From: an uncultured Gammaproteobacteria bacterium
Lineage (GTDB): Bacteria; Patescibacteriota; Patescibacteriia; Magasanikbacterales; GWA2-37-8
Assembly (NCBI GenBank): GCA_964355175.1
Contig: CAYHBZ010000001.1
Span: 64,445 to 128,444, forward strand
Direction of reading: 5' to 3'
Length of the DNA: 64,000 bases
Shown: positions 26,120-44,511 of the stretch, piece after piece
How positions within the stretch are numbered: the stretch's first letter is position 1
How the letters are laid out: each line of letters opens with the position of its first letter
Translations under genes and position numbers: made by a program
The notes under the pieces: generated by a model
Seen by the model: only the letters and a program-made list of their open reading frames with translations
What the model was told of the DNA's origin: nothing
Databases searched by the model: none

Positions 26120-26689
26120 ATGACTTTTACTAATATCGCATACGCTTCTGAAACAGCTGAAAAAACTAACACTACCGAAGAAGGTGTTGCCAATGACAGT
26201 GTTTTGGCTAGTCTTGGGATTAATGGTACTTTGTTTGTAGCTCAATTGGTGAACTTTACTTTGGTTGCTCTAATTTTATGGTTCTTGATTCTAAAACCAC
26301 TTACCAAAAAAATGTCCGAACGCCAGAAAATGATTGATGACAGCATCGACAATGCCAAAAAAATTCAAGACAACCTCAACAAGAGCGAAAAAGAATATCA
26401 GACCCGTATTGATCAAGCTAAAGTAGAATCCAATAAACTTCTAGAAAAAGCCGCAAACGAATCCGAAGTGATGGTAGAAGAAGCCAAAACTAATGCCAAG
26501 ACTGAAATCGAACGCCTAGTATCACAAGCTCGCGACAGCATTAAAGCAGAAAAAGAAACTATGCAGGTGCAACTCAAAGAAGAAACTGCAAACTTTGTGG
26601 TTTTGGCACTCGAAAAAATCTTGGGTGAAAAAGTAAATGACACTTCTGACAAAAAATTAATTGATGAAGTTTTGAAAAAATTGAAATAA
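26120..26689 (+). CDS. atpF: F0F1 ATP synthase subunit b
   Basis: single N-terminal TM followed by a long charged helix. Confidence 0.75.
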   Translation: MTFTNIAYASETAEKTNTTEEGVANDSVLASLGINGTLFVAQLVNFTLVALILWFLILKPLTKKMSERQKMIDDSIDNAKKIQDNLNKSEKEYQTRIDQAKVESNKLLEKAANESEVMVEEAKTNAKTEIERLVSQARDSIKAEKETMQVQLKEETANFVVLALEKILGEKVNDTSDKKLIDEVLKKLK

Positions 26690-26710
26690 AATAGAAAATA
26701 AAGTTAAAGT

Positions 26711-27097
26711 ATGGCAAAAAATACGCCGAAAATTTACGCTGCTGCCTTATTGAAAAGTATTGTTGGATTATCTGATAAGAACTTGAGCACAACCCTAAAA
26801 AACTTTGTCGCTTTGGTAGCTCGCGAACACAAACTCAAACAGATGCCGAGAATTATCAATGAGTTTGTGCGCCTCGCCAAAAAAGAAGAGGGGATACAAG
26901 AGATAGAAATCCAGACGGCTAGAAAATTGGACGAAAAAACAATTGAAAAAATAAAACATATTTTCGGAAAAGATACAGAGGCCACGACTGAAATAGATGA
27001 AAGCCTACTCGGTGGAGTAAAGATAAAAACCGGTGATAAAATTCTCGACGGCAGCCTCAAAACCCAATTAAATAAATTAAAACAAACTCTAATCTAG
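26711..27097 (+). CDS. atpH: F0F1 ATP synthase subunit delta (short OSCP)
   Basis: C-terminal [26 protein letters not shown] signature; operon position. Confidence 0.7.
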
Positions 27098-27101
27098 TAA
27101 T

Positions 27102-28592
<1,491 letters not shown>

Positions 28593-28597
28593 TAATT

Positions 28598-28645
28598 TGT
28601 CATCTTGAACGAAGTGAAAGATCTTTCGTTACACTCAAGATGACA
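28598..28645. repeat. palindromic intergenic repeat, copy C (shorter, TGTCATCTTGAACG...CTCAAGATGACA)
   Basis: near-perfect inverted repeat between atpA and atpG. Confidence 0.75.
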
Positions 28646-28655
28646 CTAAATAACT

Positions 28656-29597
28656 ATGGCCGTAAATACCAAAGTAATTAAACGCCGCATCAAATCCGTC
28701 TCTTCCACCAAGAAGATTACCAAAGCGATGGAAATGGTAGCGGCCGCCAAAATGCGCAAAGCGGTAGATACTGCCTTGCGTACCCGCACCTATGCCAAAT
28801 TGGCTTGGGATATTTTGGTAGATCTATCCAAAACAGCGGATGTAAAAATTCCATTACTGGAAGTACGCCCGGTAAAAAATGTTTTGGTAATTTTAGTTAC
28901 TTCCAACCGCGGCTTGTGCGGCAGTTTCAATTCCAATATTATTAAAAAAACTTCCATTCAATTAAAAAATCCAGATAACTTGGGTATACAGAATATTGAA
29001 GGAAAGATTTTAAAAACCGATAAAGTAAATATTGATGTACTCGGTATCGGCAAAAAGGGTGCGGAATTTGCTAAAAGAAATAATTATAATTTGGTCGCAT
29101 CTTTTAATACTTTTTCCGATACTCCAAGTCTAAATGATATTTTACCAATTAGTCAGATGGTAATAGATCAATACTCCAAGAAAAAATATGACAAAGTAGT
29201 GGTGGCTTATACCGCTTTCAAATCTGCCATTTCTCAAACTGCTAAATTAAAACAAGTATTACCAATTTCTCCGATTGATCTGGAAAGTATAATAGGGGAT
29301 GCTTCAGTAGAAAAAACTCTACTTGAAGAAGAAAAATCCGAAGACAGATTATTTGAACCAAATCCACAAGAAGTTTTAGAAACTATTTTACCACGCTTGG
29401 TAGAAACAGAATTACTACAAGCCACGCTAGAATCCAGCGCCTCCGAACACAGTGCTCGTATGATGGCCATGCGCAGTGCCTCTGATGCCGCATCTGATAT
29501 GATCTCTGAGCTGAACCTCAATTTCAATAAAGCCCGCCAAGCCGCCATCACGCAAGAAATTGCCGAGATTGCCGGTGGAGCCGCCGCTCTAGAATAA
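28656..29597 (+). CDS. atpG: F0F1 ATP synthase subunit gamma
   Basis: N-terminal IKRRIKSVSSTKKITKAMEMVAAAKMRKA and C-terminal ITQEIAEI. Confidence 0.9.
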   Translation: MAVNTKVIKRRIKSVSSTKKITKAMEMVAAAKMRKAVDTALRTRTYAKLAWDILVDLSKTADVKIPLLEVRPVKNVLVILVTSNRGLCGSFNSNIIKKTSIQLKNPDNLGIQNIEGKILKTDKVNIDVLGIGKKGAEFAKRNNYNLVASFNTFSDTPSLNDILPISQMVIDQYSKKKYDKVVVAYTAFKSAISQTAKLKQVLPISPIDLESIIGDASVEKTLLEEEKSEDRLFEPNPQEVLETILPRLVETELLQATLESSASEHSARMMAMRSASDAASDMISELNLNFNKARQAAITQEIAEIAGGAAALE

Positions 29598-29606
29598 TTA
29601 ATAACT

Positions 29607-29662
29607 GTCATTCCGAACGCAGTGAGGAATCTTAGAAGATCCCTAGTTACACTCGGGATGAC
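29607..29662. repeat. palindromic intergenic repeat, copy D (GTCATTCCGAACGCAGTGAGGAATC...ACTCGGGATGAC)
   Basis: inverted repeat between atpG and atpD. Confidence 0.8.
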
Positions 29663-29675
29663 AATACTAAACTAA

Positions 29676-31073
<1,398 letters not shown>

Positions 31074-31076
31074 TCC

Positions 31077-31106
31077 GTCATTCTGAGCGTAGCAAAGAAT
31101 CCCTTT
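31077..31106. repeat. half copy (left arm only) of the palindromic repeat family, copy E
   Basis: GTCATTCTGAGCGTAGCAAAGAATCCCTTT directly after the atpD stop; no right arm. Confidence 0.65.
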
Positions 31107-31122
31107 CACTCAAACAAAAATT

Positions 31123-31557
31123 ATGCCAAAAATAAACCTAAAAATCGTTACACCGGAAAAAGTAATTTACGAAAATAATCAGGTAGACCAAATTACTATT
31201 CCGACTACCACCGGTGAAATCACCGTACTACCAAACCATGTACCCCTGGTTAGTATTTTGAAATCCGGTGAGATGATTTTTAAAGAAAATGGACAAGAAA
31301 ATTTTTTCGCGCTGTCTGGTGGATTTTTGGAAGTGAAAGAACACAGTGAAGTATTGATCCTGGCCGATAATGTAGAGCGCGCTCATGAAATTAATATTGA
31401 AAAAGCTGAGGCGGCGAAAGCAAGAGCCGAGGTACAGATGAGTGAACTCAAGAATACAGAAGATGTAGACTTTGCTAGATTGCAGGCGGTGATTGATAGG
31501 GAAGCGAATAGATTGAGAGTGGGGAATAAGTACAGAAAACTTCCTAAGAGTGAATAA
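31123..31557 (+). CDS. atpC: F0F1 ATP synthase subunit epsilon
   Basis: beta-sandwich N-terminus (VTPEKVIY...TGEITVLPNHVP) plus helical C-terminus. Confidence 0.8.
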   Translation: MPKINLKIVTPEKVIYENNQVDQITIPTTTGEITVLPNHVPLVSILKSGEMIFKENGQENFFALSGGFLEVKEHSEVLILADNVERAHEINIEKAEAAKARAEVQMSELKNTEDVDFARLQAVIDREANRLRVGNKYRKLPKSE

Positions 31558-31564
31558 ACTCAAC

Positions 31565-31598
31565 AAAAAAACAATGGTACGAGACCATTGTTTTTTTG
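31565..31598 (+). terminator. rho-independent terminator ending the atp operon
   Basis: aaaaaaacaatggt-acgag-accattgttttttt. Confidence 0.75.
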
Positions 31599-31626
31599 TT
31601 GAAAAAGGGATAAAATATATTTTATT

Positions 31627-32571
31627 ATGACTACAAATTTTATGACTAAAAAACAAGTCTTAATTCTAGAAGATCTCGGTATTACAAAAGCAGACTTTGA
31701 AAAAATCGCTGCAAAAGCGAATTTACCGTTTGATATCATATGGGAAAAAGATTTATCAGACACAGAGTCGGTTGAAGCAATTATCACTGTTAAAACAAAA
31801 TTTGATAAACAATTGTTTGCTAAATACCCCAATGTAAAAGTAATTACAGTCGCATTTACAGGCTACGATTGCGTTGATATTGAAATTTGTCGGCAAAATG
31901 GCATTGCTGTCTACAATGTCCCTGCTTATTCCACAAATTCTGTAGCAGAACTCACAGTTGGTTTGGCAATATCATTATTAAGAGAAATTCCGGCTGCAAA
32001 CAATATAGTCTGTTCTGGAAAATGGAATATGAAACCAGACCAAGAACTTTCTGGTAAAACAGTAGGTATTCTTGGCACAGGTACAATAGGAATAATGGCA
32101 GCAAATTTCTTCAAAACTTTTGGCTGTAAAATCGTAGGTTGGTCAAAAACAGAAAAAGAAGAGTTTAAAACGCTTGGCAATTATATCTCAGATCTACAAG
32201 AATTTTTCTCTATTTCAGATATTGTTTCTATACACCTCCCGCTGAATAACGAGACAAAAGGAATGATCGGAGAGAAAGAACTTGCTTCCATGCAAACAAC
32301 TGCCTATCTTATTAATACAGCGAGAGGGTCTATCATAAATGAAGAGGCTCTAATTAAAGTATTAAGCGAAAATAAAATTGCCGGAGCAGCCCTAGATGTA
32401 TTTGCTCAAGAACCTATCAATCCAGACAGTCGGCTTTTGCAGCTCCAGAATGTTATTTTAACACCGCACATTGCATACAAAACAGTGGAAGCATTGGAAC
32501 GAAGAGCTGAAATTACAATAAGAAATATTGCTAATTTTATCAATGACAACAAAACAAATAGAGTTAATTAG
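31627..32571 (+). CDS. D-isomer-specific 2-hydroxyacid dehydrogenase (NAD-binding; PGDH/GDH-like)
   Basis: GILGTGTIGIMAA Rossmann motif; catalytic R..E..H region (TARGSII...E, TPHIA). Confidence 0.75.
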   Translation: MTTNFMTKKQVLILEDLGITKADFEKIAAKANLPFDIIWEKDLSDTESVEAIITVKTKFDKQLFAKYPNVKVITVAFTGYDCVDIEICRQNGIAVYNVPAYSTNSVAELTVGLAISLLREIPAANNIVCSGKWNMKPDQELSGKTVGILGTGTIGIMAANFFKTFGCKIVGWSKTEKEEFKTLGNYISDLQEFFSISDIVSIHLPLNNETKGMIGEKELASMQTTAYLINTARGSIINEEALIKVLSENKIAGAALDVFAQEPINPDSRLLQLQNVILTPHIAYKTVEALERRAEITIRNIANFINDNKTNRVN

Positions 32572-32605
32572 GTGGCAATTTTTGGCAGTGACTTAAAAAA
32601 ATAAT

Positions 32606-32857
32606 ATGAATGTTACAAAAAAACACGATTTTATACCTAAAGAAAAAAGAAACAAAATAGTAAATGAGATAATTACTTACTATAAAACAAAAATGGATCA
32701 AGAAATCGGCGTAGTGGTCGCTGAAGATATCCTAGATTTTTTCTTAGAAGCTATCGGAAATGATATTTATAATAAAGCGATTAGTGATTCAAAAAATACT
32801 ATTAAAAATGGTTTTGAGATTATTGAAGTCGATTTAGATTTATTACTAAATAAATGA
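32606..32857 (+). CDS. hypothetical small protein
   Basis: 83-aa ORF in a block with A-ending codon bias; no recognisable motif. Confidence 0.3.
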   Translation: MNVTKKHDFIPKEKRNKIVNEIITYYKTKMDQEIGVVVAEDILDFFLEAIGNDIYNKAISDSKNTIKNGFEIIEVDLDLLLNK

Positions 32858-33243
32858 TTAAATTTAATAAAAAATATTTCATAGCCGCAATAATATTATT
32901 TATAATAGAAATTTTTATCGCCCTATTTATACATGATAGAATAGTTAGGCCTTACATAGGGGATATGCTGGCGGTAATCTTAATTTTCTGTTTTATAAAA
33001 AGCTTTATTAATATTAGATCTATGTATATAGCAATTTCTACTTTGGTCTTTGCTTACTTTATAGAACTACTGCAATATTTTAACTTACTTGATTATATTG
33101 ATTTAAAAGGCAATAAAGTTGCCGCGATACTGCTAGGTGGGTCATTTGACTGGATTGATTTGGTTAATTATACTTTAGGAATAGTAATTGTTATTACATT
33201 TGAAAAAATGATTTTAAAACTAACTAAAAATAAGCTCTCTTAA
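32854..33243 (+). CDS. hypothetical membrane protein (3-4 TM)
   Basis: hydrophobic helices; start overlaps the upstream stop (ATGA). Confidence 0.35.
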   Translation: MIKFNKKYFIAAIILFIIEIFIALFIHDRIVRPYIGDMLAVILIFCFIKSFINIRSMYIAISTLVFAYFIELLQYFNLLDYIDLKGNKVAAILLGGSFDWIDLVNYTLGIVIVITFEKMILKLTKNKLS

Positions 33244-33249
33244 TTAAAT

Positions 33250-33732
33250 ATGGAAAATCAAAACGAAAAATTTATCTTAAAATGTATTGAGTTAGCACAA
33301 AAAGGTTTAGAAAAAGGAGAGATGCCTTTTGCTAGCCTTATTACAAAAGGGGACGAAATTATAGTCGAATCTATAAATGGAGCCGCCGGAAGAATTTCTG
33401 ACCACGCTGAAATTCTAGTCCTAGACAGGGCTCATAAAATATTAGGAACGTCTGATTTATCAGGTTATACATTATATACAATTTGCGAACCGTGCCCTAT
33501 GTGCTCATTTATGATCCGTGAATATAAAATAAAGAAAGTGGTTTTTTCACTATTCTCACTATTTATGGGCGGATATTCAAAATGGAACATTCTCCAAGAT
33601 CAAGAAATAGCTCAATTTAAAGATTTCTTTGGCCAACCACCGGAAGTCGTGGGTGGAATTTTTGAAGACAGAGCAAAAAAGATATTTGCCCAGACGCCGC
33701 TTTGGATGTTTGGTAGTGACTTAAAAAAATAA
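33250..33732 (+). CDS. CDA-fold nucleoside/nucleotide (tRNA-adenosine/guanine-type) deaminase
   Basis: zinc-binding HAE ... PCPMC motifs. Confidence 0.7.
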   Translation: MENQNEKFILKCIELAQKGLEKGEMPFASLITKGDEIIVESINGAAGRISDHAEILVLDRAHKILGTSDLSGYTLYTICEPCPMCSFMIREYKIKKVVFSLFSLFMGGYSKWNILQDQEIAQFKDFFGQPPEVVGGIFEDRAKKIFAQTPLWMFGSDLKK

Positions 33733-33762
33733 AAGGTTATTTGTCCCTAGCAACCTATTAGA

Positions 33763-33796
33763 AATAACGACCATAGCACAGTCGTTATTTTTATTT
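33763..33796 (+). terminator. rho-independent terminator after the deaminase gene
   Basis: aaataacgac-catagcaca-gtcgttattt plus T-run. Confidence 0.55.
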
Positions 33797-33820
33797 AAAA
33801 CTACTACTAAATTTATAATA

Positions 33821-33849
33821 TTGACGCCCCCCCCCTCTAATGATATAAT
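33821..33849 (+). promoter_or_regulatory. consensus promoter TTGACG-17-TATAAT whose spacer contains a C9 homopolymer (candidate slipped-strand phase-variation switch)
   Basis: exact hexamers; spacer = CCCCCCCCCTCTAATGA (17 nt); the only long G/C homopolymer seen in the window; 37 nt upstream of ORF 33886. Confidence 0.5.
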
Positions 33850-33885
33850 TTTATCAAGTTTAAATTAGACTTTTAATAACATTAT

Positions 33886-34728
33886 ATGCATCCAGGTGAA
33901 GCGGGAAAAAATGAAATTAGTTCAATTGGCAGCGCCTATTACACTTTCAGTAAATTTAAAGAAAGAGCAAAAAGCAAGGATATGGTCGGGCTGAAGGCTA
34001 ATTTACAAGATGTCAAATCATCACAAAAATTCGTTGAAAAAAATTTACCCGATATTCCAAAAGAAGCACGTGAAAATAAAAATGGGATCTACAGTCCGGC
34101 CCACATGCTTAACAACGCTGTTTCTTACATGGCACAAACAATTGAATCTGGTGATCAGTCCGATTTAGGAAAGGCGTCAATTGCAGCAGATCAGGCTGAA
34201 AGACTAGCTGGTTATGGAATGAAACTAAAAGAAGTTAATAACAGTCTTAAAACAACTGTGCTCACAGGATCACACACTCGAGAAATTAATCGTACAAATG
34301 TAATCGATATACCGGTCAATTGGAAAGAATCCGAAGCTGGTAAAAAATTTTTAAAAGGTATTACCGATTTTATTATAGCAAGAAATAAAGGAGAGGTAAT
34401 AACAGACAAAGATATTCAAATGTTTACTGATTTAGGAGATTTAATATTGACCGCATACAAGGATTTAAAGGTTGGTAAGGATCAAGCTCAAACTTATCCT
34501 ATGGCGCGAGAAATGATCCTCATCAATCTAGCTTTATTGAAAGCTGAAGCAAAAAAACATATAGGCAAACGAATGCCGCAAACAGAGAAAGATTTTGTAA
34601 CAGTTCAACTTATTCGGGGATTATACCATCACGATACGGCTACTGAACAAGAACAAAAAATGGGGCACCGTGAAAGTTTTGATAAAGGTCCAACTATTAT
34701 AGATAGACCACCCGGTCTACAAACTTAA
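33886..34728 (+). CDS. hypothetical protein, 280 aa, no signal peptide, no recognisable domain
   Basis: long ORF with A-ending codon bias; own promoter and terminator. Confidence 0.45.
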   Translation: MHPGEAGKNEISSIGSAYYTFSKFKERAKSKDMVGLKANLQDVKSSQKFVEKNLPDIPKEARENKNGIYSPAHMLNNAVSYMAQTIESGDQSDLGKASIAADQAERLAGYGMKLKEVNNSLKTTVLTGSHTREINRTNVIDIPVNWKESEAGKKFLKGITDFIIARNKGEVITDKDIQMFTDLGDLILTAYKDLKVGKDQAQTYPMAREMILINLALLKAEAKKHIGKRMPQTEKDFVTVQLIRGLYHHDTATEQEQKMGHRESFDKGPTIIDRPPGLQT

Positions 34729-34835
34729 GATTATCAAATAGACATAAGAAGTTTAAAAAAATAAAAAATAGCCCTCAAAAAGAGCTATTTTTTAGCCCTA
34801 GCCAGCCATTTTCTTCTCTGCTATACTAAACATAT

Positions 34836-34970
34836 ATGTCCAAATGCAACACCTGCACCCTAGTTCTGGAGAATGAAGAGGATGCTTGCGTTTGCAACAG
34901 CAGTATTTGTCATGGTTGCTGTAGCTGCCAGGACGGCTGTGGTTGTGGATGTTTAGCCGCCCACATTTAG
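34836..34970 (+). CDS. unlisted sORF: 44-aa Cys-rich metallothionein-like peptide (MSKCNTCTLVLENEEDACVCNSSICHGCCSCQDGCGCGCLAAHI)
   Basis: 11 Cys in 44 aa, in CxC/CC/CGC clusters; ATG..TAG complete; TATACT -10-like box upstream; the overlapping 62-aa antisense ORF (34798..34986) is also Cys-rich, so strand choice is not settled. Confidence 0.4.
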   Translation: MSKCNTCTLVLENEEDACVCNSSICHGCCSCQDGCGCGCLAAHI

Positions 34971-35013
34971 AAGGAAATTTTATCACAGGGTAAAGACTAC
35001 TCTTTATTTAGGT

Positions 35014-37992
35014 ATGTCAAATTTGAATTCCAATCAAAAAATCGCGGTGGAATATAACGACGGCCCCTTGCTGATAGTAGCGGGTGCTGGTACCGGCAAG
35101 ACCACTGTGATCACCCAAAAAATCGCCTATCTGATCCAAAATAAACTCGCTCGCGCTGAGGAGATTTTGGCGGTGACTTTTACCGAAAAAGCTACTACTG
35201 AAATGGAGGATAGAGTACAAGAACTTTTATCTTTTTCCGGCTTTGATGTCCTTACTTGTACTTTTCACGGACTGTGCCAGCAGATCTTGGAAAGCAACGC
35301 GCTCGATATCGGCATCCCAAATAATTTTAAACTTCTCAACGAAACGGAAAGTTGGCTTCTCGTGCGCCAGAATTTGGATAAATTTAAATTGGATTATTAT
35401 CGACCACTGGGTAATCCGACCAAATTTATCCACGCGATGATTAAACATTTCCAAAAATGCAAAGACGAATTGGTCACACCGCAAAATTATCTGGAATATG
35501 CCCAAAGTTTGAACCTAGATTCGGATTTGGAACCAAGTAAAAAAAAGAAAAAGAAGACCGAGGATAGCGGAGAAGATACCGCACTAGAAATAAAAAGAAT
35601 AAACGAACTGGCTGAGGCATATCATACATACAATCAATTATTGCTTGATTCTAGTTCGTTGGACTTTGCGGATCTTATTTTTTATACCGTCAAACTTTTC
35701 CAAGAACGTCCAAATGTTTTAAAATTTTATCAAAAAAGATTTAAATATATTTTGGTAGACGAATTCCAGGATACCAATTATTCTCAATACCAACTTATTA
35801 AACTACTAACTCAAAACAGCGACACCAAACTCACGGTAGTGGGGGACGACGATCAAAGTATCTATAAATTCCGCGGCGCTTCCGTGTCCAATATTTTGCA
35901 ATTTAAAGATGATTTTGTAAAATCCAAAGAAGTGGTGCTAAGCGAAAATTATCGCTCCGGACAAAAAATTCTGGACTTGGCATATAATTTTATTCAACTC
36001 AATAATCCGGATCGCCTAGAAGATAGACTAAAAATAAATAAAAAACTATCGGCTCAAACCAAGAAAGTCGGGGATTACGATTTATTAATGGGACAAAATC
36101 CTAGTCATGAAGCGGATTTACTATGTAAAAAAATTCTTGGTCTAAAAGAACAGGATAAAAATCTTAAATGGAACGACTTTGCGATACTTTGTCGCGCCAA
36201 TAGTTTTGCAGATCAGTTTATCCCTTACCTCAATCAGCTAAATATTCCTTATGAATTTGCCTCTCCCAGCGGTTTATTTCGCCAAAAGGTAGTCTTGGAC
36301 AGTTTGGCATTCTTGCGTTTGTGCGACAACTACCACGAGTCCAGCGCGGTTTACCGCATTCTCAACAGTCCAATTTTTTCGATGTACTACAGCGATCTTT
36401 CTCAACTTTTGCTATATAGTCGCCGCCAGACAGTTTCGCTCTTTGAATCCATCAAAGTAGCTTCACGCGGAATTGTGAAACTAAGCAAACACGGACAAGA
36501 AGTTATTGAGAAACTCATAAACATCGTGGGTGAATGCACTCAGCTGAGCAAACAAGAGCCGGCCGGTCGTGTGCTCTATAAATTTTGGGAAAAATCAGGT
36601 TATCTGAAACTGCTCAGCGATAATGTAGAAAAATACCAAATTGATATTTTGTATTTGCAGGCCTTGTTTGAAAAGATAGACGAATTCCAAAAAAATAATA
36701 GCGATACCGGCGTGCGATCTTGGCTGACATATTTTGAAACTTTGCTTGAATCAGGTGATGACGGGGAAGATTTTTCTCAAGATACCAGAGGAGACGCTGT
36801 CAAAATTATGAGCATTCACCGATCCAAAGGTTTGGAATTTGAATATGTCTTTATTCCAAATTTTGTAGACCAGAGATTTCCATCTACCAACCGCTCTACC
36901 GCTATTGATCTGCCCGATGCTCTGGTACGCGAAGCGGCCTTACCAAGCGGTGACGCCCATACTCAAGAAGAGCGTCGTTTGCTATATGTAGCCATCACCC
37001 GCGCCAAACAAGGTGTATATTTTACAGCAGCCAAAAATTATGGCGGTGCGCGTGATAAAAAACTTTCTAAATTTATCCTCGAACTAGAAAGTACCAACCA
37101 AACCGCTTTTAGCCGAGAAATAATTAGCAGTGGACCAATTATTGATCTGGAACAAAAATCTAATGAGGAGGTAGCCGAAACTTTTGAACTGGAAATTCCA
37201 AAAGAATTTTCCTTTTCACAATTACAATCTTTTGATAAATGTCCTTGGCAGTATCGTTTTCAATTTATTCTCAAAGTACCAACTTTTGGCAAAGGAGTGT
37301 TTAGTTTTGGTAAAACCATGCATGGTACTTTGCAAAAATTTTACCAGCAAGTGATTGAATTAAATTCCGCCAAACAAAATTCTTTGTTTACTGCCGCTGC
37401 GCCAAAATTAGGCGAAGAAATAAAAGTGCCGTCACTGGATACTTTAAAAGAAATTTATAGAGAAGCTTGGCAAGATAGCTGGTTTCAATCTGCTGGCCAA
37501 AAACAAGAATATAAGAAAAAGGGGATTGAGATTTTGGAAAACTTTTATGCTCGCGGCGAAAAAGAAGGTTGGACTGTGCCTATCACCGTGGAAAAAGGTT
37601 TCCGTTTCAGATTAAAAGATCACACTATCAAAGGCCAAATTGATCGTATTGATAAAACTATCGACGGTAAATTAGCCATCATTGATTACAAAACCGGCCG
37701 ACCAAAAGACAAACTCGCTGCCGAAGATAAAAGTCAGCTCTTGATTTACCAAATCGCAGCTGAGAGCGTGATTGAACTGCGTAACCTCGGCGAAGTATCT
37801 GAACTGCGTTATTATTATTTAGATAATAATAGTGTTCAGGCTTTCAAAGGTACCGATGAAGAAACTGAAAAAGAAAAAATAAAAATTGATGAAATAATTA
37901 CCGAGATAAAAAAGAAAAATTTTACACCAAAACCAAATAAGGAGACTTGCCAGTACTGTGACTTCCGTGATATCTGTGATTTTCGTGTATGA
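35014..37992 (+). CDS. UvrD/PcrA-type SF1 helicase fused to a C-terminal RecB/Cas4-like PD-(D/E)xK nuclease with a 4-Cys cluster
   Basis: Walker A AGAGTGKT; helicase motifs (VDEFQDTN, TVVGDDDQSIYKFRGA, MSIHRSKGLEFEYVF, VAITRAK); nuclease motif IIDYKTG; C-terminal CQYCDFRDICD. Confidence 0.8.
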   Translation: MSNLNSNQKIAVEYNDGPLLIVAGAGTGKTTVITQKIAYLIQNKLARAEEILAVTFTEKATTEMEDRVQELLSFSGFDVLTCTFHGLCQQILESNALDIGIPNNFKLLNETESWLLVRQNLDKFKLDYYRPLGNPTKFIHAMIKHFQKCKDELVTPQNYLEYAQSLNLDSDLEPSKKKKKKTEDSGEDTALEIKRINELAEAYHTYNQLLLDSSSLDFADLIFYTVKLFQERPNVLKFYQKRFKYILVDEFQDTNYSQYQLIKLLTQNSDTKLTVVGDDDQSIYKFRGASVSNILQFKDDFVKSKEVVLSENYRSGQKILDLAYNFIQLNNPDRLEDRLKINKKLSAQTKKVGDYDLLMGQNPSHEADLLCKKILGLKEQDKNLKWNDFAILCRANSFADQFIPYLNQLNIPYEFASPSGLFRQKVVLDSLAFLRLCDNYHESSAVYRILNSPIFSMYYSDLSQLLLYSRRQTVSLFESIKVASRGIVKLSKHGQEVIEKLINIVGECTQLSKQEPAGRVLYKFWEKSGYLKLLSDNVEKYQIDILYLQALFEKIDEFQKNNSDTGVRSWLTYFETLLESGDDGEDFSQDTRGDAVKIMSIHRSKGLEFEYVFIPNFVDQRFPSTNRSTAIDLPDALVREAALPSGDAHTQEERRLLYVAITRAKQGVYFTAAKNYGGARDKKLSKFILELESTNQTAFSREIISSGPIIDLEQKSNEEVAETFELEIPKEFSFSQLQSFDKCPWQYRFQFILKVPTFGKGVFSFGKTMHGTLQKFYQQVIELNSAKQNSLFTAAAPKLGEEIKVPSLDTLKEIYREAWQDSWFQSAGQKQEYKKKGIEILENFYARGEKEGWTVPITVEKGFRFRLKDHTIKGQIDRIDKTIDGKLAIIDYKTGRPKDKLAAEDKSQLLIYQIAAESVIELRNLGEVSELRYYYLDNNSVQAFKGTDEETEKEKIKIDEIITEIKKKNFTPKPNKETCQYCDFRDICDFRV

Positions 37993-38282
37993 TGAAATCT
38001 CTCGCTGACATCCTGAAATACAAAGGACGCAGCTCACCTTTTATCAAAGGCGTGCTTTCGGCTGCCATTGTCGACAATGGCAATATTTTTATAGAAAAAA
38101 ACTGGGGAGACGGTGGTAAAAAATTAGCACAAGCGATATATGTGAAGGAAGGGGTATTGGTAATAGCTTGTCTGAGCTCCATAATGGCCCAAGAAATCAA
38201 ACTAAAAGAGCGCGAACTGCTCAGCCACTTAAACCAAAACTACAGCGATATACCGATTAAAAAGATCAGATATTTGTCTTAA
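37989..38282 (+). CDS. DUF721/DciA-like small protein
   Basis: 97 aa; start overlaps the helicase stop (ATGA); pattern L..IL...G......A.....W..IV....LA..I....L.I...SS.WA.E resembles DUF721. Confidence 0.35.
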   Translation: MMKSLADILKYKGRSSPFIKGVLSAAIVDNGNIFIEKNWGDGGKKLAQAIYVKEGVLVIACLSSIMAQEIKLKERELLSHLNQNYSDIPIKKIRYLS

Positions 38283-38340
38283 ACTAGCCTAAAATTCCGC
38301 CTTGCCAAAGCCGATTATTTGGACTATAATTAATTGACTT

Positions 38341-38739
38341 ATGACCTTAAAACAATATTTACATCTGATGGCGGCAGGCACCCTTATCTGTTGGGTAGCC
38401 TGGTTTTTTATATTGTTTAACACCGATCCGAAAGAAGCCGACTTCGTAATTTTTACTTTTTTATACAGCAGTTTGTTTTTGGGAATTGTTGGTTTATTTT
38501 CCGTTATTGGCTTTTTGATAAAGAGCCGTCGCACTACTCATGATGATGCCGTATTTCGTCAAGTGAAAAAAACTTTCACTCAAGGCATATTGCTGGGTGC
38601 TTTTACAATTTGTGTTTTAATTTTGCGTCAATTTGATTTATTGTTCTGGTGGAATGCGATCTTTTTGGTAATACTCTATGTGCTGATTGAGGGCGTAATT
38701 TTATCCAACCGCAAGTACCATAATCGTGATTATGTTTGA
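38341..38739 (+). CDS. hypothetical membrane protein (4 TM)
   Basis: hydrophobic profile only. Confidence 0.4.
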   Translation: MTLKQYLHLMAAGTLICWVAWFFILFNTDPKEADFVIFTFLYSSLFLGIVGLFSVIGFLIKSRRTTHDDAVFRQVKKTFTQGILLGAFTICVLILRQFDLLFWWNAIFLVILYVLIEGVILSNRKYHNRDYV

Positions 38740-39778
38740 TAAATTGTTTAATCGTTTTCGCAAAGATCTGGGAATTGACCTTGGTACGGCCAATACTTTG
38801 GTGTATGTAAAAAATCGTGGCATTGTAATCAACGAACCAAGTGTAGTGGCAATCAATACTCGCACTGATCAAATTTTAGCCGTAGGAAACCAAGCCAAAG
38901 AAATGGTTGGCAAAACCCCACCTCACATTATTACTCCTCGTCCGCTCATTGGTGGCATTATTGCTGATTTTGAAGTTACTGAAAAAATGTTGCGTTATTT
39001 TATTGATAAAATAAACGAAGACGAACGAAATTTCTTTTCTCGTCCGCGTGTAGTAATCGGTGTACCGCTTGAAATTACCGAAGTAGAGCGCAAAGCCGTA
39101 TCCGATGCGGCCATCAATGCCGGCGCCAAAGAAGTATATGTGGTCCAGGAGCCGATGGCCGCCGCGATTGGCGCGCGTATGCCGGTGCGTGAACCGGTAG
39201 GAAATCTGATCGTAGAAATCGGCGGCGGTACTTCTGAGATCGCTTTGATCTCTCTAAGCGGTGTCGTGAATTGGAAATCTATAAAAATTGCGGGGGACGA
39301 ACTCAATCGCAATATTGTTCAATACGCTCGTGATGAATTTAATTTGCTTTTGGGCGAACGCCAAGCGGAAGATATCAAAATAAAAATTGGTTCCGCTATT
39401 GAACTATCGGAAACCATGCAATATCCGATGCGCGGCCGTGATTTGCTCAGCGGCTTACCAAAAGAAATCATGATCAGCGATGCTCAGGTGCGTGAAGCGA
39501 TAATTAAATCTCTGCGTACTATCGTAGAACATGTAAAAGCTACACTAGAAACTTCTCCTCCTGAATTAGTAGCCGACATTCATGAGCGCGGCATTTTGTT
39601 ATCCGGCGGTGGCGCACTACTGCGCGGGTTGGATAAATTAATTGGCCGTGCCACCGAAATTCCAGTGCGTATCGCGGACGATCCTTTAACTTCTGTCGTA
39701 CGCGGCAATGGTTTGCTTTTGGACGATATGGAATTACTCAACGAGGTAGCAATTCTTTCTCCTCATCATAATCTTTAA
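38726..39778 (+). CDS. mreB: rod-shape-determining protein MreB
   Basis: actin-fold phosphate-1 motif DLGTANTLVYV; EIGGGTSEIA; full-length MreB homology. Confidence 0.9.
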   Translation: MIMFDKLFNRFRKDLGIDLGTANTLVYVKNRGIVINEPSVVAINTRTDQILAVGNQAKEMVGKTPPHIITPRPLIGGIIADFEVTEKMLRYFIDKINEDERNFFSRPRVVIGVPLEITEVERKAVSDAAINAGAKEVYVVQEPMAAAIGARMPVREPVGNLIVEIGGGTSEIALISLSGVVNWKSIKIAGDELNRNIVQYARDEFNLLLGERQAEDIKIKIGSAIELSETMQYPMRGRDLLSGLPKEIMISDAQVREAIIKSLRTIVEHVKATLETSPPELVADIHERGILLSGGGALLRGLDKLIGRATEIPVRIADDPLTSVVRGNGLLLDDMELLNEVAILSPHHNL

Positions 39779-39780
39779 AA

Positions 39781-40542
39781 ATGCGTTATTACTCCTTCAA
39801 AAAAATCTATCTCAAAATAGTGATCTTATTTTTTTTATTGATCGCTTTTCATTATTTTGGTTGGCTCAACCCAATAGAAAATAGACTGAGGAATTTTTTC
39901 TTGTGGGCTATCCATCCGGTAAATAAACAATCTTTTCAAAATAACGACGCGAGCGAAACTCTCACCGCCGCGCTGGCACTGACCGATCTTTTGAACGCGA
40001 AAAATAAAATTTTGGAAAAAGAAAATTTTGATCTGCGTTTGGAATTAAATTTTAAAGCCAAAAATAAATTTAATTTGCTGGGCGCGGAAGTAGTCGCAAA
40101 AAATATCCAAGCTATTGAACAAGTAGTGATTTTAAACCGCGGTCTGAAAGACGGTGTGAAACTAGACCAACCGGTAATTTACGGCGACGGCGTCCTGATT
40201 GGAAAAATAATTAAAGTGGAGGATAATATTTCTTTTGCCCGACTGCTCAATGATAATCAAAGTAAAATCGCGGCCACAGTCACCAACTCCGGCCATAGCC
40301 TCGGGGTAGTGGAAGGCGGCTATGGACTAAGCATAAAAATGAATTTTATTCCCCGCAACGAAAATGTGGCGATAGGGGACCAAATAATAACTTCCGGCAT
40401 TGAGCTGTCCATTCCGGCCGGACTCGTAATTGGCAAAGTGGCAGCAATTGAAAATGAATCATATCAACCTTTCCAACAAGCGGTAATTACTCCGGTGGTG
40501 GAATATCAAAAGGTGAATATCGTCAGCATCATCACGAATTAA
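39781..40542 (+). CDS. mreC: rod-shape-determining protein MreC
   Basis: N-terminal TM plus coiled coil, C-terminal beta domains; position after mreB. Confidence 0.75.
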   Translation: MRYYSFKKIYLKIVILFFLLIAFHYFGWLNPIENRLRNFFLWAIHPVNKQSFQNNDASETLTAALALTDLLNAKNKILEKENFDLRLELNFKAKNKFNLLGAEVVAKNIQAIEQVVILNRGLKDGVKLDQPVIYGDGVLIGKIIKVEDNISFARLLNDNQSKIAATVTNSGHSLGVVEGGYGLSIKMNFIPRNENVAIGDQIITSGIELSIPAGLVIGKVAAIENESYQPFQQAVITPVVEYQKVNIVSIITN

Positions 40543-40544
40543 TT

Positions 40545-41087
40545 ATGATTAAAAATAAAATCATAAAAAATATACTATTTTTTCTATTGGCTAATTTTTT
40601 AATTTTTTTAAACCTTTCTTGGCATATTATCGCAAATCCGGCGCTAAATCTTATAAACATTAACTTGGCGGTACTGCTCTGGGCAATTATTTCTAATCCC
40701 CGCGGAAATTATTGGCCATATATTTTATATGTGGCTTTTGTAAATGAACTCTTTGAAAAAACTTCTTTTGGTATTACGGCTTTACCTTTGATAGCCACTT
40801 TACTATTTGTGCACTGGCTATTGCTAAACATCTTTACCAACCGCTCCCTGGTTACCGTGTTTCTAAGCGGCTTTTGCGCGCTAGTATTATATCGACTGCT
40901 TTTTATTGGTTCAAATTTTTTATTTTATTCCTACCCCGATCAAACTCTCACCAACGGCACACAACTTAAACTACTTTTGGTAGAAGCAATTCTCACTGCC
41001 AGCGTATTGGCTTTTGGCTATTTGATCTCGGCCTTTTTTATCAAACGACTCCATCCGGAATATATTAATCGCGGCCATATCTTATGA
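40545..41087 (+). CDS. MreD-like polytopic membrane protein
   Basis: 5-TM protein between mreC and PBP2 (synteny); no diagnostic motif. Confidence 0.4.
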   Translation: MIKNKIIKNILFFLLANFLIFLNLSWHIIANPALNLININLAVLLWAIISNPRGNYWPYILYVAFVNELFEKTSFGITALPLIATLLFVHWLLLNIFTNRSLVTVFLSGFCALVLYRLLFIGSNFLFYSYPDQTLTNGTQLKLLLVEAILTASVLAFGYLISAFFIKRLHPEYINRGHIL

Positions 41088-43066
41088 GTAAAGATTTTTT
41101 TGAAATTCAAGATTTGAGCGAAAACTTTCAAAACCTGAATGGTAAATTTAGCCATGGCTGGATAGAAGATAATTTTCATTTGGATAAAGAAACTGGCCGC
41201 CACAACAATACTACCAGTGGCACTCGCAAATATCTGGGCAAAAGCATCTCCAATAAGTATCTATTTTGGTTTGGCATAATTTTAATTATTGGAATTTCCA
41301 CAATATTTCTAAAAAGTTTTTATACCCAAGTTATTCGCGGGAATTATTTTTATACTCTGGCTGAAAATAATCGCGTGCGTATCCGTCCTATTCCGGCTGA
41401 GCGCGGTATTATTTTTGATCGCTATGGCAAACAGCTGGTACAAAATGTGCCGGATTTTTCTCTGTCTATCATTCCGCAAGATTTACCGGCTGATCAAAAT
41501 AAACGTCAGGAGATTATTCGACGCTTGGCCGATATCTCCGGATTGACTACCGACTATATTCAAAATTTATTACAAAAATATAAAAATTATAGCTATGACT
41601 CTTTGGTCCTAAAAGAAAATTTGGACTATGACACTTCTTTAAAAATTTATATTGAGAGCGCGCAGATGCCGGGCGTATTGATTAGCGGTGGTAATAAGCG
41701 TTTTTATATTTATTCTCAGGACGACACCTCGCCAAGCTCTACTGTGAGTTTGTCGCATGTAATGGGATATCTGTCCAAATTAAACGACTCAGAATTGGAT
41801 GAAAAACGATCTCAAGGATATTTACTCTCGGATAACATCGGCAAAACCGGTGTAGAAAAAAGTTATGAGACTGAACTACGCGGAATTTATGGACGCAAAA
41901 AAATTGAAGTAAACGCCGCCGGACAAGAACAAAATATCGTGGCTGAAGAACCGCCTACACCCGGTAAAAATCTCTACCTGACTATCGATGCCGAGGCACA
42001 AAATAAAATGGAAAATTTAATAAAAACTTTTGTGGCCAATCATGGACCGCACCGTATCTCCGCCATCGCTATGGATCCGCGCAACGGAGAAATAATAGCC
42101 ATGGTGAGCTGGCCAAGTTTTAATAATAACTTATTTTCCGGCGGAATTTCACAAGAAAATTATAATAAATACCTGGCCGATACCAATCATCCGCTTTTCA
42201 ATCGCGCGATTGGCGGCAACACTCCTTCTGGCTCTATCGTAAAACCGGTAATGGCCGCGGCGGCTTTGGAAGAAAAAATTATAGATGCTCGCACCACGGT
42301 TTTTAGCAATGGCGGCATCCATGTAGGGAAGTGGTATTTCAAAGATTGGAAAGCGGGTGGACACGGAACTACTAATGTTACTTGGGCTTTGGCTTGGTCC
42401 GTAAATACTTTCTTTTATCATATCGGTGGCGGTTTCCAAAATTTCAAAGGTTTGGGGCTAGATAAAATACTAGAGTACATGCACAAATTTAATCTTGGCG
42501 CTAAAACCGGAATTGATCTACCCGGAGAAACTACCGGATTTCTTCCAAGCAGAGAATGGAAAGAAAAAACTCGTGGCGAACAATGGTATGTAGGTGATAC
42601 TTATAACTTGTCTATCGGCCAAGGTGATTTATTGGTCACACCGCTTCAAGCCTCGATTTGGACATCAGCGGTAGCTAATAACGGCACTATCGTGCGCCCA
42701 CATGTGGCTATGCAAATTTCCGGCACTGATAAAAATATTCAAAAACTGGATTTCCCGCCGACAAAAACTAATATTGTATCTGGAGAAACTTTATCGGTAG
42801 TGCGCCAAGGTATGCGCGACTGTGTGCTAGTAGGTAGTTGTAAACTTTTACAAACATTGCCATTTACTTCCGCCGGAAAAACCGGTACGGCGCAATGGAG
42901 CAGTAAAGAGCCCGAGCATGCCTGGTTTACCGCTTTTGCTCCTTATGAGAATCCTCAAATTCAGGTGACGGTGCTAATCGAAGCGGGCGGACAAGGCTCT
43001 ACTGTGAGTATGCCTATTGCCCGCGACTTTTTGAGCTGGTGGGGAAAAAAATATTTGACACACTAA
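41084..43066 (+). CDS. mrdA: penicillin-binding protein 2 (class B transpeptidase)
   Basis: N-terminal TM; PBP dimerisation region; SxxK (SIVK), SxN-like and KTG (AGKTGTA) motifs. Confidence 0.8.
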   Translation: MSKDFFEIQDLSENFQNLNGKFSHGWIEDNFHLDKETGRHNNTTSGTRKYLGKSISNKYLFWFGIILIIGISTIFLKSFYTQVIRGNYFYTLAENNRVRIRPIPAERGIIFDRYGKQLVQNVPDFSLSIIPQDLPADQNKRQEIIRRLADISGLTTDYIQNLLQKYKNYSYDSLVLKENLDYDTSLKIYIESAQMPGVLISGGNKRFYIYSQDDTSPSSTVSLSHVMGYLSKLNDSELDEKRSQGYLLSDNIGKTGVEKSYETELRGIYGRKKIEVNAAGQEQNIVAEEPPTPGKNLYLTIDAEAQNKMENLIKTFVANHGPHRISAIAMDPRNGEIIAMVSWPSFNNNLFSGGISQENYNKYLADTNHPLFNRAIGGNTPSGSIVKPVMAAAALEEKIIDARTTVFSNGGIHVGKWYFKDWKAGGHGTTNVTWALAWSVNTFFYHIGGGFQNFKGLGLDKILEYMHKFNLGAKTGIDLPGETTGFLPSREWKEKTRGEQWYVGDTYNLSIGQGDLLVTPLQASIWTSAVANNGTIVRPHVAMQISGTDKNIQKLDFPPTKTNIVSGETLSVVRQGMRDCVLVGSCKLLQTLPFTSAGKTGTAQWSSKEPEHAWFTAFAPYENPQIQVTVLIEAGGQGSTVSMPIARDFLSWWGKKYLTH

Positions 43067-43130
43067 AAAACCTCTGTTATTATATTAGCAAGAAACTCTT
43101 TGCGAGTTTATTTTATTTCTATTTTGACCT

Positions 43131-43595
43131 ATGGACAACAATATCCAGTACCTAACGAAAGAAAGCTTACAAAACCTAAAGACCGAACTGGAAACTTTAC
43201 GCAATAAAACCATTCCGGATATCGCTCGCCGTATCGATGAAGCCAAGCAACAAGGCGATCTCTCGGAAAATGCCGAATATCACCAGGCTAGAGAAGATAT
43301 GAGCTGGACACAGGGCCGAGTACAAGAGCTAGATCAGCTGATCCAGAATGCCCAAATCATCGAAAAAAGTGTAGACCATGACACCGTGAGCATTGGATCT
43401 ACAGTGACTGTAAAAATAAATGGAAAAACCAAGGACTATACTATTGTTGGTCCACAAGAAATTGATCCGTCCAAAGGCTATATCTCCAACGAATCTCCGC
43501 TAGGACAAGCCTTTCTCAAACATAAAGTAAAAGACAAAATAGAAGTAATTACCCCGGCTGGAAAAAATGTTTACGAAATAATTTTGATAAAATAA
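43131..43595 (+). CDS. greA: transcription elongation factor GreA (paralogue 2)
   Basis: GDLSENAEYHQAREDM acidic finger; C-terminal FKBP-like domain. Confidence 0.8.
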   Translation: MDNNIQYLTKESLQNLKTELETLRNKTIPDIARRIDEAKQQGDLSENAEYHQAREDMSWTQGRVQELDQLIQNAQIIEKSVDHDTVSIGSTVTVKINGKTKDYTIVGPQEIDPSKGYISNESPLGQAFLKHKVKDKIEVITPAGKNVYEIILIK

Positions 43596-43602
43596 ATTAA
43601 AT

Positions 43603-43637
43603 AAAAAATCCTCCGATTGAGTCGGAGGATTTTTTAT
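43603..43637. terminator. bidirectional rho-independent terminator between convergent genes
   Basis: aaaaaatcctccgac-ttga-gtcggaggatttttt. Confidence 0.75.
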
Positions 43638-43644
43638 TTAATTT

Positions 43645-44511
43645 TTAATCACAGCTTTTACGACTGGAGTCATCGAGATTTCTTGGGAGAATCAAGGTTC
43701 TCATATTTAGCTTCAAAGATTCAATACAAATTTTCGGACTATTTTTATATTCAGCATTAAAAATTGGCTTGTTTTGCTTGGTAAATACGGACAGCTGATC
43801 ACATTCATGATACACATGACATTGTTCGTTTACCGTGAGATCAAAATAATCAACCAAATCTCCGGCCAACTCAACAGCATTTTTGAGCGCTACCGTAAGA
43901 CCACGCTTGTGTGCCTCCTGCGAAATTTGACGATTAAAATTTAATTGATCAGCTTTAGTTAAAGCAAAACCTGTTTTGTTGGAATACCCATCTACATTAT
44001 CTGGTTCCACACCATCACAACCTTTAGCGACCGCCAGATCAAGACGGGAGATGTTCACATCCATCACATTTTTTGCGCGGATGTCCAGCCATTTTTCACC
44101 ATTCCAACCATCGAGAGGTTTGCCAAGTGAATTGGAGTTGAACTTTTGATAATCAGGTCGCCATTTTTCAGCTGATCCGGCGGAAAAATAACATAAAACT
44201 TTTTTACCGGACGCTTTGAGGCTAGAGATAATCTCGGGAGAAGTGTCAAAAAGGTCAATATCATAAACGTCAACCGGATAACTTTGATTAATATTTCCAG
44301 TTAGTTGCCATTGCCAGGTGGTGGTAACGATTGGGCGGTACCAATTTCCCTGAATCGGTGCGGAGACCGGCTGGGCGAGAGAGGTGGACATTGCAGGCTT
44401 GGCAGCTGTTTTTTTTGCCGTTTTTTTGGCCTTAGCGGCCAAAGTCATGGTCGGTATGACCAAAAAAGCTATAATTACTAGGAAAACAGCTCTTTTTGCG
44501 TAGTTTTTCAT
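43645..44511 (-). CDS. secreted glycoside hydrolase family 114-like (PelA-type endo-alpha-1,4-polygalactosaminidase fold)
   Basis: signal peptide plus Lys/Ala-rich linker; TIM-barrel motifs VYDIDLFD, LCYFSAGS, GCDGVEPDNVDGY typical of GH114/TM1410-like proteins. Confidence 0.5.
   Translation of the reverse strand: MKNYAKRAVFLVIIAFLVIPTMTLAAKAKKTAKKTAAKPAMSTSLAQPVSAPIQGNWYRPIVTTTWQWQLTGNINQSYPVDVYDIDLFDTSPEIISSLKASGKKVLCYFSAGSAEKWRPDYQKFNSNSLGKPLDGWNGEKWLDIRAKNVMDVNISRLDLAVAKGCDGVEPDNVDGYSNKTGFALTKADQLNFNRQISQEAHKRGLTVALKNAVELAGDLVDYFDLTVNEQCHVYHECDQLSVFTKQNKPIFNAEYKNSPKICIESLKLNMRTLILPRNLDDSSRKSCD

Follow-up and report, generated by a model that had tools for sequence, protein, structure and literature searches.

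An undescribed family of 11-cysteine mini-proteins in candidate phyla radiation bacteria, recognised from a 44-codon gene of Candidatus Magasanikbacteria and possibly metallothionein-like

Background

Which of two overlapping cysteine-rich reading frames on opposite strands is a gene, and what would its product do? The question is raised by a locus in contig CAYHBZ010000001.1 (GenBank assembly GCA_964355175.1), of which a stretch of 64,000 nucleotides (hereafter the window) was analysed. Just upstream of a helicase gene, the + strand carries a small open reading frame (sORF) for a 44-amino-acid peptide with 11 Cys, and an open reading frame (ORF) for a Cys- and His-rich product of 62 amino acids lies over the same DNA on the opposite strand. 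Both frames had been described in an earlier note made from the letters of the window, and their coordinates and counts are reproduced here (Table 1). The analysis identifies the sORF as a protein-coding gene belonging to an undescribed family of 11-Cys mini-proteins, whose members may well hold metal ions in the manner of metallothioneins.

A conserved coding frame on the + strand

The sORF product, MSKCNTCTLVLENEEDACVCNSSICHGCCSCQDGCGCGCLAAHI, is 25% Cys, includes two His and no aromatic residue, and has no signal peptide. The ATG at 34836 is its sole possible start because a TAA stands in frame upstream at 34827-34829. When all six frames of the window were divided into 1367 stop-to-stop pieces of at least 25 amino acids, the piece containing the sORF was the richest in Cys (24%, the next richest having 14-16%) and the only one to match the profile of the family described below (E = 4.4e-15). 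The Cys density of the sORF in this AT-rich window is not due to chance.

Homologous loci were found by scanning a genome collection with the 992-amino-acid helicase encoded downstream, and the scan placed the window in Candidatus Magasanikbacteria, within the candidate phyla radiation (CPR). The orthologous helicase is 93% identical in locus L001, which derives from the water column of Lac Pavin, and 64-67% identical in L002 to L005. Locus L004 starts within the helicase gene and is therefore uninformative on the upstream region. In each of the other four, a + strand sORF lies 43-50 nucleotides (nt) upstream of the helicase start; its product begins MSKCNTCTLILENEED in L001 and reads MSKCVNCGTPLEHEEDTCLCNTSICPHCCDCNKECGCNCEKQEKK in L002 and MAKCVNCGKPLEHEDDSCLCNTSVCPTCCDCHKECGCNCKERTEK in L003, while in L005, which is truncated, the copy is incomplete. 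All 11 Cys align in register across the Magasanikbacteria sORF loci.

The substitutions between these loci fall as expected of a gene read in the sense direction. Between L002 and L003, 4, 3 and 16 differences occur at sense codon positions 1, 2 and 3 (binomial P = 4e-4), and the ratio of nonsynonymous to synonymous differences (pN/pS) is 0.11 in the sense frame and 5.41 in the antisense frame. The window differs from L002 at 12, 11 and 22 such positions (pN/pS 0.35 sense, 1.16 antisense) and from L003 at 13, 12 and 23 (0.39 and 1.48). The partial L005 copy was compared with L002 in the sense frame (2, 0 and 4 differences, pN/pS 0.09) and with L003 (2, 2 and 12 differences, sense pN/pS 0.08). 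Sense pN/pS ranges overall from 0.08 to 0.39, with sense-frame synonymous sites saturated in these comparisons, against 1.16 to 5.41 for the antisense frame. Selection on the amino-acid sequence spans the entire sORF and extends beyond the Cys codons. The antisense frame varies most at its second codon positions, which are the third positions of the sense frame, and is interrupted by in-frame stops in both L002 and L003.

The + strand sORF is a real protein-coding gene under purifying selection, the decisive basis being the conservation of its frame in other genomes. The antisense ORF is open only because the DNA is rich in TGY/GCA, and is an artefact. The earlier note had held that only one strand can be real and had favoured the + strand, had put down the Cys content of the opposite strand to the TGC/GCA-rich DNA, and had proposed frame conservation and the balance of nonsynonymous and synonymous change in homologous loci as a check; the check favours the + strand, and the antisense frame, with its stops in L002 and L003, is not conserved. 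That the antisense ORF is the gene, or that neither frame is coding, can be dismissed with near certainty: the antisense ORF is the longer of the two and is likewise rich in Cys and His, but it is refuted by its stops and its pN/pS, and its product matches no Pfam or NCBIfam family, whereas the sense product has about 48 relatives.

A family of 11-Cys mini-proteins in CPR bacteria

A word-indexed protein search with the single sORF peptide found no match, and neither the exact peptide nor the exact helicase has been recorded as a called gene. Four relatives (E = 5e-7 to 9e-4) came from an exhaustive phmmer search of 1.84 billion cluster representatives; used as seeds for profile searches, they led first to 11 proteins and then to about 48, which are 42-74 amino acids long. 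All are labelled 'hypothetical protein' at source, bar one that carries a Taf7 label (JGI), which is spurious because it reflects an acidic tail. The organism names of the relatives, where given, are all of CPR bacteria: Paceibacterota, Pacebacteria, Daviesbacteria and Patescibacteria group.

In the family alignment of 49 sequences, the skeleton C-x(1,2)-C-x(9,12)-C-x-C-x4-C-x2-CC-x-C-x3-C-x-C-x-C fits 48 members. Exactly 11 Cys are present in 40 members and 12 in the remaining 9, with a median Cys content of 22%. Beyond the Cys, at least 90% of members keep P10, L11 and G38, at least 70% have G-M ahead of P-L, and about two thirds have His27. Aromatic residues are absent from 11 members, single in 18, and number two or more in 20. 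One copy of the family gene is found per locus. No Pfam or NCBIfam family reached threshold for any of the 49 members, profile searches of PDB sequences gave nothing meaningful, and literature searches on metallothioneins or small Cys-rich proteins of CPR bacteria, Patescibacteria or Parcubacteria yielded no relevant paper. The family is undescribed and has no Pfam, NCBIfam, PDB or literature record; it comprises about 50 members, which so far have been met only in CPR bacteria.

A degenerate DNA skeleton with nine TGY codons was also used to scan for family members. It matched 120 metagenome and 112 viral loci, none of which proved a family member on translation. Most of the matches are TGC/CTG-type trinucleotide repeats read out of frame as poly-Cys, or chance, so these scans are uninformative on the distribution of the family; they are a caution for pattern-based searches of Cys-rich peptides in general. 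Several of the viral matches sit in metagenome-assembled genomes (MAGs) of giant viruses.

Predicted structure

The AlphaFold2 model is compact and lacks regular secondary structure, showing only isolated beta-bridges at residues 3, 10, 17 and 25. Model confidence is fair, the predicted local distance difference test score being 79.6 with an alignment of 12 sequences and 83.4 with 49. Such a fold, as modelled, is what would be expected of a metal-stabilised mini-domain. Foldseek found no significant structural neighbour in the PDB (E 3.6-10, TM-scores 0.25-0.43); the best non-significant matches are nearly all zinc modules (LIM, FYVE, PHD, RING and CXXC).

A putative metallothionein-like role

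We lean, with modest confidence, towards reading the sORF product as a cytoplasmic mini-protein whose 11 invariant Cys would coordinate several metal ions as thiolates, making it a metallothionein-like module for holding or buffering metal. The invariant Cys skeleton, the cytoplasmic location, the odd number of Cys and the CxxC-G knuckle signature point to folding around thiolate-bound metal ions. The N-terminal part (CxxC, about ten residues, CxC) resembles a zinc-knuckle pair and would provide a site formed by C4, C7, C18 and C20. The seven C-terminal Cys, C25 to C39 (C-x2-CC-x-C-x3-C-x-C-G-C), resemble a metallothionein-type cluster. The four-metal alpha-domain of vertebrate metallothionein has 11 Cys ligands (M4Cys11); since the sORF product has the same number of Cys, a multi-metal cluster spanning the whole peptide is equally possible. 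The protein would hold or buffer Zn(II) and/or Cu(I)/Cd(II) and would not be homologous to the described metallothioneins. A role in metal buffering or detoxification is favoured over that of a purely structural zinc module.

The earlier note had likened the peptide to bacterial metallothioneins, and the likeness stands in part. At 43-74 amino acids, with 11-12 Cys and with CxC, CC and CxxC motifs, the aligned members have the low molecular weight, the high Cys content and the motifs of metallothioneins in the operational sense. The proposed affiliation with SmtA/BmtA fell: PF02069, the Pfam model of that family, did not match the window peptide or any of the 49 members at E <= 10. In a comparison of profiles by hhalign, Drosophila MtnA reached a probability of 36.6% over 26 columns. 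The Diptera family Metallothio_5 (PF02067) gave weak Pfam matches in 16 of 49 members, the best at E = 0.0064, with no match for the window peptide. From the sequences compared, the likeness to Metallothio_5 is one of composition and pattern, not of demonstrated common descent.

Several observations weigh against a metallothionein-like role. In hhalign the family profile reaches a probability of 2.7% with SmtA and 1.9% with human MT2 (the two sequences having been verified against the PDB, SmtA against entry 1JJD), and the Metallothio_5 scores of three members inspected, 9.7-13.3 bits, lie below the gathering cut-off of 25; because these hhalign and Pfam scores are sub-threshold, the CPR family shows no detectable membership of a metallothionein family described so far. 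Aromatic residues occur in 38 members and at least one His in 36, unlike in classical metallothioneins. Neither an operator-like repeat nor a metal-sensor operator was found at the promoter in the four Magasanikbacteria loci where it is preserved. Metal- or redox-related neighbours of the family gene are anecdotal, each being confined to a single lineage: a P2-type ATPase (P0001/P0007/P0020 lineage), a CsoR-family gene (L018), rubrerythrin with a ZIP transporter 4.7 kb away (L149), and thioredoxin with thioredoxin reductase 3 kb from the family gene (L024). A CsoR operator-like palindrome in L018, ATACC-TATGG-TATAGGTAT, about 700 bp off, was dropped as evidence of regulation because between it and the Cys-rich gene lie a terminator and a further ORF. 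The conserved GMPL segment, D16 and G38, together with the confident single fold, suit a structural zinc finger at least equally well. Metal binding and the physiological role of the protein are both inferred.

Comparison with described metallothioneins shows the same mixture of likeness and difference. SmtA, which acts in zinc detoxification (PMC7387436), is also a small cytoplasmic bacterial Cys-rich protein with CxC motifs, and joins a zinc-finger-like element to a metal cluster, as proposed here for the sORF product. Its 9 Cys and its His ligands are spread over 56 amino acids with other spacing and form a Zn4 cluster (Cys9His2), whereas the CPR family has 11 invariant Cys and keeps His27 in only about two thirds of its members. 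MymT of Mycobacterium tuberculosis, crucial for copper detoxification (PMC7387436), resembles the family in being tiny (about 50 amino acids), lineage-restricted, Cys-rich and long missed by annotation. None of the searches revealed a sequence relationship between it and the family. A copper-responsive repressor of the CsoR type controls MymT, whereas the sole CsoR-family neighbour of the CPR family, that of L018, lies 0.7 kb from the Cys-rich gene, with another gene and a terminator between them. The family has CC, CxC and CxCGC runs in common with eukaryotic metallothioneins (vertebrate alpha-domain and Diptera family) and, as described above, gives weak matches to the Diptera family; these metallothioneins nonetheless lack the CxxC-GMPL, zinc-knuckle-like N-terminus of the CPR proteins.

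Alternative functions

The product could instead be a structural zinc-finger mini-protein, in which the Cys would bind two or three Zn for the sake of a fixed fold and the role would be to bind a partner protein or nucleic acid. The invariant Cys spacing, the GMPL that follows CxxC as in zinc knuckles, the conserved D16 and G38, and the single confident AlphaFold conformation all agree with this explanation, as does the promoter, constitutive in appearance and free of any metal operator. Two-zinc modules make up nearly all of the weak Foldseek neighbours, and these cross-brace and treble-clef modules are compact and poor in secondary structure, like the predicted fold. They place 8 ligands over 50-70 residues, however, whereas the family packs 11 Cys, with CC and CxCxC runs among them, into 36 residues, a density far above that of known two-zinc fingers. 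None of the Foldseek matches is significant (all E > 3), and no partner gene is conserved across ten neighbourhoods of the family gene (about ±9 kb in the window and ±5-6 kb in nine other contexts). We regard a purely structural zinc finger as unlikely, while far from negligible.

A small iron-sulphur (Fe-S) protein or a redox-active thiol protein, carrying Fe-S clusters or serving as a thiol redox buffer, is improbable. High Cys content in anaerobic CPR bacteria would fit such a role, as would the rubrerythrin of L149 and the thioredoxin system of L024 in those single loci, and NCBIfam returned one marginal ndhI match (E = 1.5). The ferredoxin motif CxxCxxCxxxCP is nevertheless absent from the 49-member alignment, Fe-S ligands do not typically occur in CC and CxCxC runs, and no Fe-S family of Pfam or NCBIfam matched any of the 49 members.

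The earlier note had alternatively seen a Cys-rich RiPP core after an acidic leader. The size of the peptide (about 45 amino acids) and its many Cys are indeed like those of SCIFF/ranthipeptide precursors, and an acidic stretch is present at residues 12-16. This stretch lies between Cys pairs, the first of which is at residues 4 and 7; with Cys from residue 4 onwards along the entire peptide, there is no split into leader and core, and the whole length is conserved as one skeleton. The RiPP precursor models of NCBIfam gave no match at E <= 10, and no gene for a modifying enzyme (radical-SAM/SPASM, lanthipeptide, YcaO or similar), peptidase or dedicated exporter adjoins the family gene in the ten contexts. 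A RiPP precursor, ranthipeptide/SCIFF-like or similar, with a maturase encoded elsewhere, is therefore very improbable.

Expression signals

The features of the locus are listed in Table 1. The terminator scan called the hairpin upstream of the sORF, which is palindromic, on the - strand, but on the + strand too it is followed by a T-run. In L002 and L003 as well, a hairpin and T-run stand directly before the sORF promoter, and the hairpin in the window likely isolates the sORF from upstream transcription.

Table 1. Features at the sORF locus, in window coordinates
Feature	Position	Strand	Description
Hairpin and T-run	34762-34794	+	Likely terminator after the upstream 280-amino-acid gene (stop at 34728)
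Antisense ORF	34798-34986	-	62 amino acids, 7 Cys, 6 His; not a gene, an open frame left by sense-strand codon composition
Promoter-like element	34799-34827	+	Weak -35 TAGCCA (34799-34804), 17-nt spacer, extended -10 TG-C-TATACT (34819-34827)
Cys-rich sORF	34836-34970, including stop	+	ATG start, TAG stop, 44 codons; protein-coding; member of an unannotated CPR-restricted 11-Cys mini-protein family
Spacer between sORF and helicase gene	34971-35013 (43 nt)	+	No terminator hairpin; conserved ACTCT-TTATTT-AGGT just before the helicase ATG
Helicase gene	35014-37992	+	992-amino-acid UvrD/PcrA-type helicase fused to a PD-(D/E)XK (Cas4/AddB-like) nuclease

The TATACT box that the earlier note had pointed out upstream of the sORF is real. 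It occupies 34822-34827, is preceded by TG at 34819-20 and ends 8 nt before the ATG. A block CTG(C/G)TATACTA is kept in the window, L001, L002 and L003 as an extended -10 that always ends at this distance from the ATG. Transcription is accordingly predicted to start at 34833-34836, 0-3 nt before the AUG, which would make the sORF mRNA near-leaderless.

In the region 26120-44511 of the window, with 20 gene starts, a 4-nt Shine-Dalgarno core at -20 to -4 precedes none of the 19 genes around the sORF. Since none of these neighbours has one, the lack of a Shine-Dalgarno site before the sORF is normal for the organism, and the Magasanikbacteria genome of the window appears not to use such sites. 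This may be why its short genes are missed by gene callers. The sORF would be expressed from its own extended -10 promoter as a near-leaderless mRNA. Shine-Dalgarno use in related CPR loci ranges from 1 of 7 to 12 of 18 genes, and in two genomes with such sites before some of the neighbouring genes, the family gene itself has a well-placed one (GGGAGGTG in L150 and AAGGAG in L151).

A terminator hairpin follows the family gene in five other lineages, two of which (L021 and L024) also have an extended -10 upstream. In the window no terminator follows the sORF stop, so transcription may continue into the helicase gene, and the two may be co-transcribed in the Magasanikbacteria lineage. The ACTCT and T-rich block is invariant before the helicase ATG in five loci. 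In the form ACTCT-(A/T)A(A/T)TTT-(A/T)G-N-T (34995-35013 in the window) it abuts the helicase start in the window, L001, L002, L003 and L005, and in the last three an upstream AGAGT pairs with the ACTCT as an inverted repeat. It may serve as the -10 of a leaderless transcript of the helicase gene, or else form a small hairpin or operator.

A structured RNA at the sORF was considered and rejected: Rfam and tRNA scans of the entire window gave no match, and the sORF mRNA folds no better than its shuffles (z = -0.63).

Gene neighbourhoods and linkage to the helicase

Only in the Magasanikbacteria clade is the sORF syntenic with the helicase gene. The family gene and the helicase gene are separated by an ABC transporter gene and a terminator in the P0002 lineage, and in eight other lineages no helicase gene was found near the family gene, which there occupies unrelated places. 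Functional coupling to the helicase was rejected on the ground that the linkage is restricted to one clade. It is also hardly credible that the sORF is a regulatory upstream ORF or leader peptide controlling the helicase-nuclease, for example by sensing the supply of Cys-tRNA. Its position 43-50 nt upstream of the helicase gene in the window, L001, L002, L003 and L005, with no terminator between the two in the window, would suit such a role, but the family gene has its own terminator hairpin in five other lineages and is unlinked to any helicase in eight, selection on the amino acids covers the whole length and not the Cys codons alone, and the mRNA has no attenuator-like structure.

Within about 9 kb on either side of the sORF, the window contains an ATP synthase operon and genes for a 2-hydroxyacid dehydrogenase, DUF2164 and DUF2809 proteins, a deaminase, a 280-amino-acid orphan, the helicase-nuclease, DciA, MreB, MreC, PBP2, GreA, a GH114 protein and a class II aminoacyl-tRNA synthetase. 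The orphan (33886-34728), directly upstream of the sORF, has no NCBIfam match and a sub-threshold Pfam match only, to the mycoplasma family Lipoprotein_10 (E = 0.012). The C-terminal nuclease of the helicase carries a terminal Cys motif, CQYCDFRDIC. The helicase stop overlaps the start of the DciA gene (37989-38282), and the order helicase-DciA-x-MreB is also found in the P0002 lineage.

Two other loci have features of their own. The helicase orthologue of Falkowbacteria (L006, 5968-9468) is 1166 amino acids long and contains several insertions of a repeated TRKHENTKT-like unit within and between the conserved helicase and nuclease segments. It has no Cys-rich sORF upstream, the upstream gene being a 417-amino-acid ORF that looks, by eye, like an aminoacyl-tRNA synthetase. 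In L018, a Paceibacterota MAG, a CsoR-operator-type palindrome, TATACCCATACCTATGGTATAGGTATGTAT (5296-5335), lies between the divergent CsoR-family gene (5006-5278, - strand) and a gene for a 44-amino-acid hydrophobic membrane peptide (5467-5601, + strand). The peptide gene is preceded by a strong Shine-Dalgarno site and followed by a terminator of its own, and the arrangement may be a small copper-responsive membrane-peptide unit.

Significance

CPR bacteria, or Patescibacteria, account for a large share of bacterial diversity, and their tiny genomes are full of unannotated genes. The 44-codon frame described here, which had no record as a called gene, is one member of a family on which purifying selection acts strongly in several CPR lineages. 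The locus further provides a clean worked example of choosing between Cys-rich frames that overlap on opposite strands.

SmtA and MymT were the only bacterial metallothioneins studied functionally by 2020 (PMC7387436). If the proposed metal binding is true, the CPR proteins would extend the short list of metallothionein-like proteins from bacteria by a new sequence family. It is possible, and we suggest it tentatively, that the sORF is the founding member of an undescribed CPR-restricted metallothionein family combining a zinc knuckle with a seven-Cys cluster, made from a leaderless mRNA in Magasanikbacteria, and the first dedicated metal-buffering protein to be recognised in Patescibacteria. 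The reduced genomes of these bacteria otherwise show few metal-homeostasis genes, and such a protein would offer a handle on metal handling in organisms not yet grown alone.

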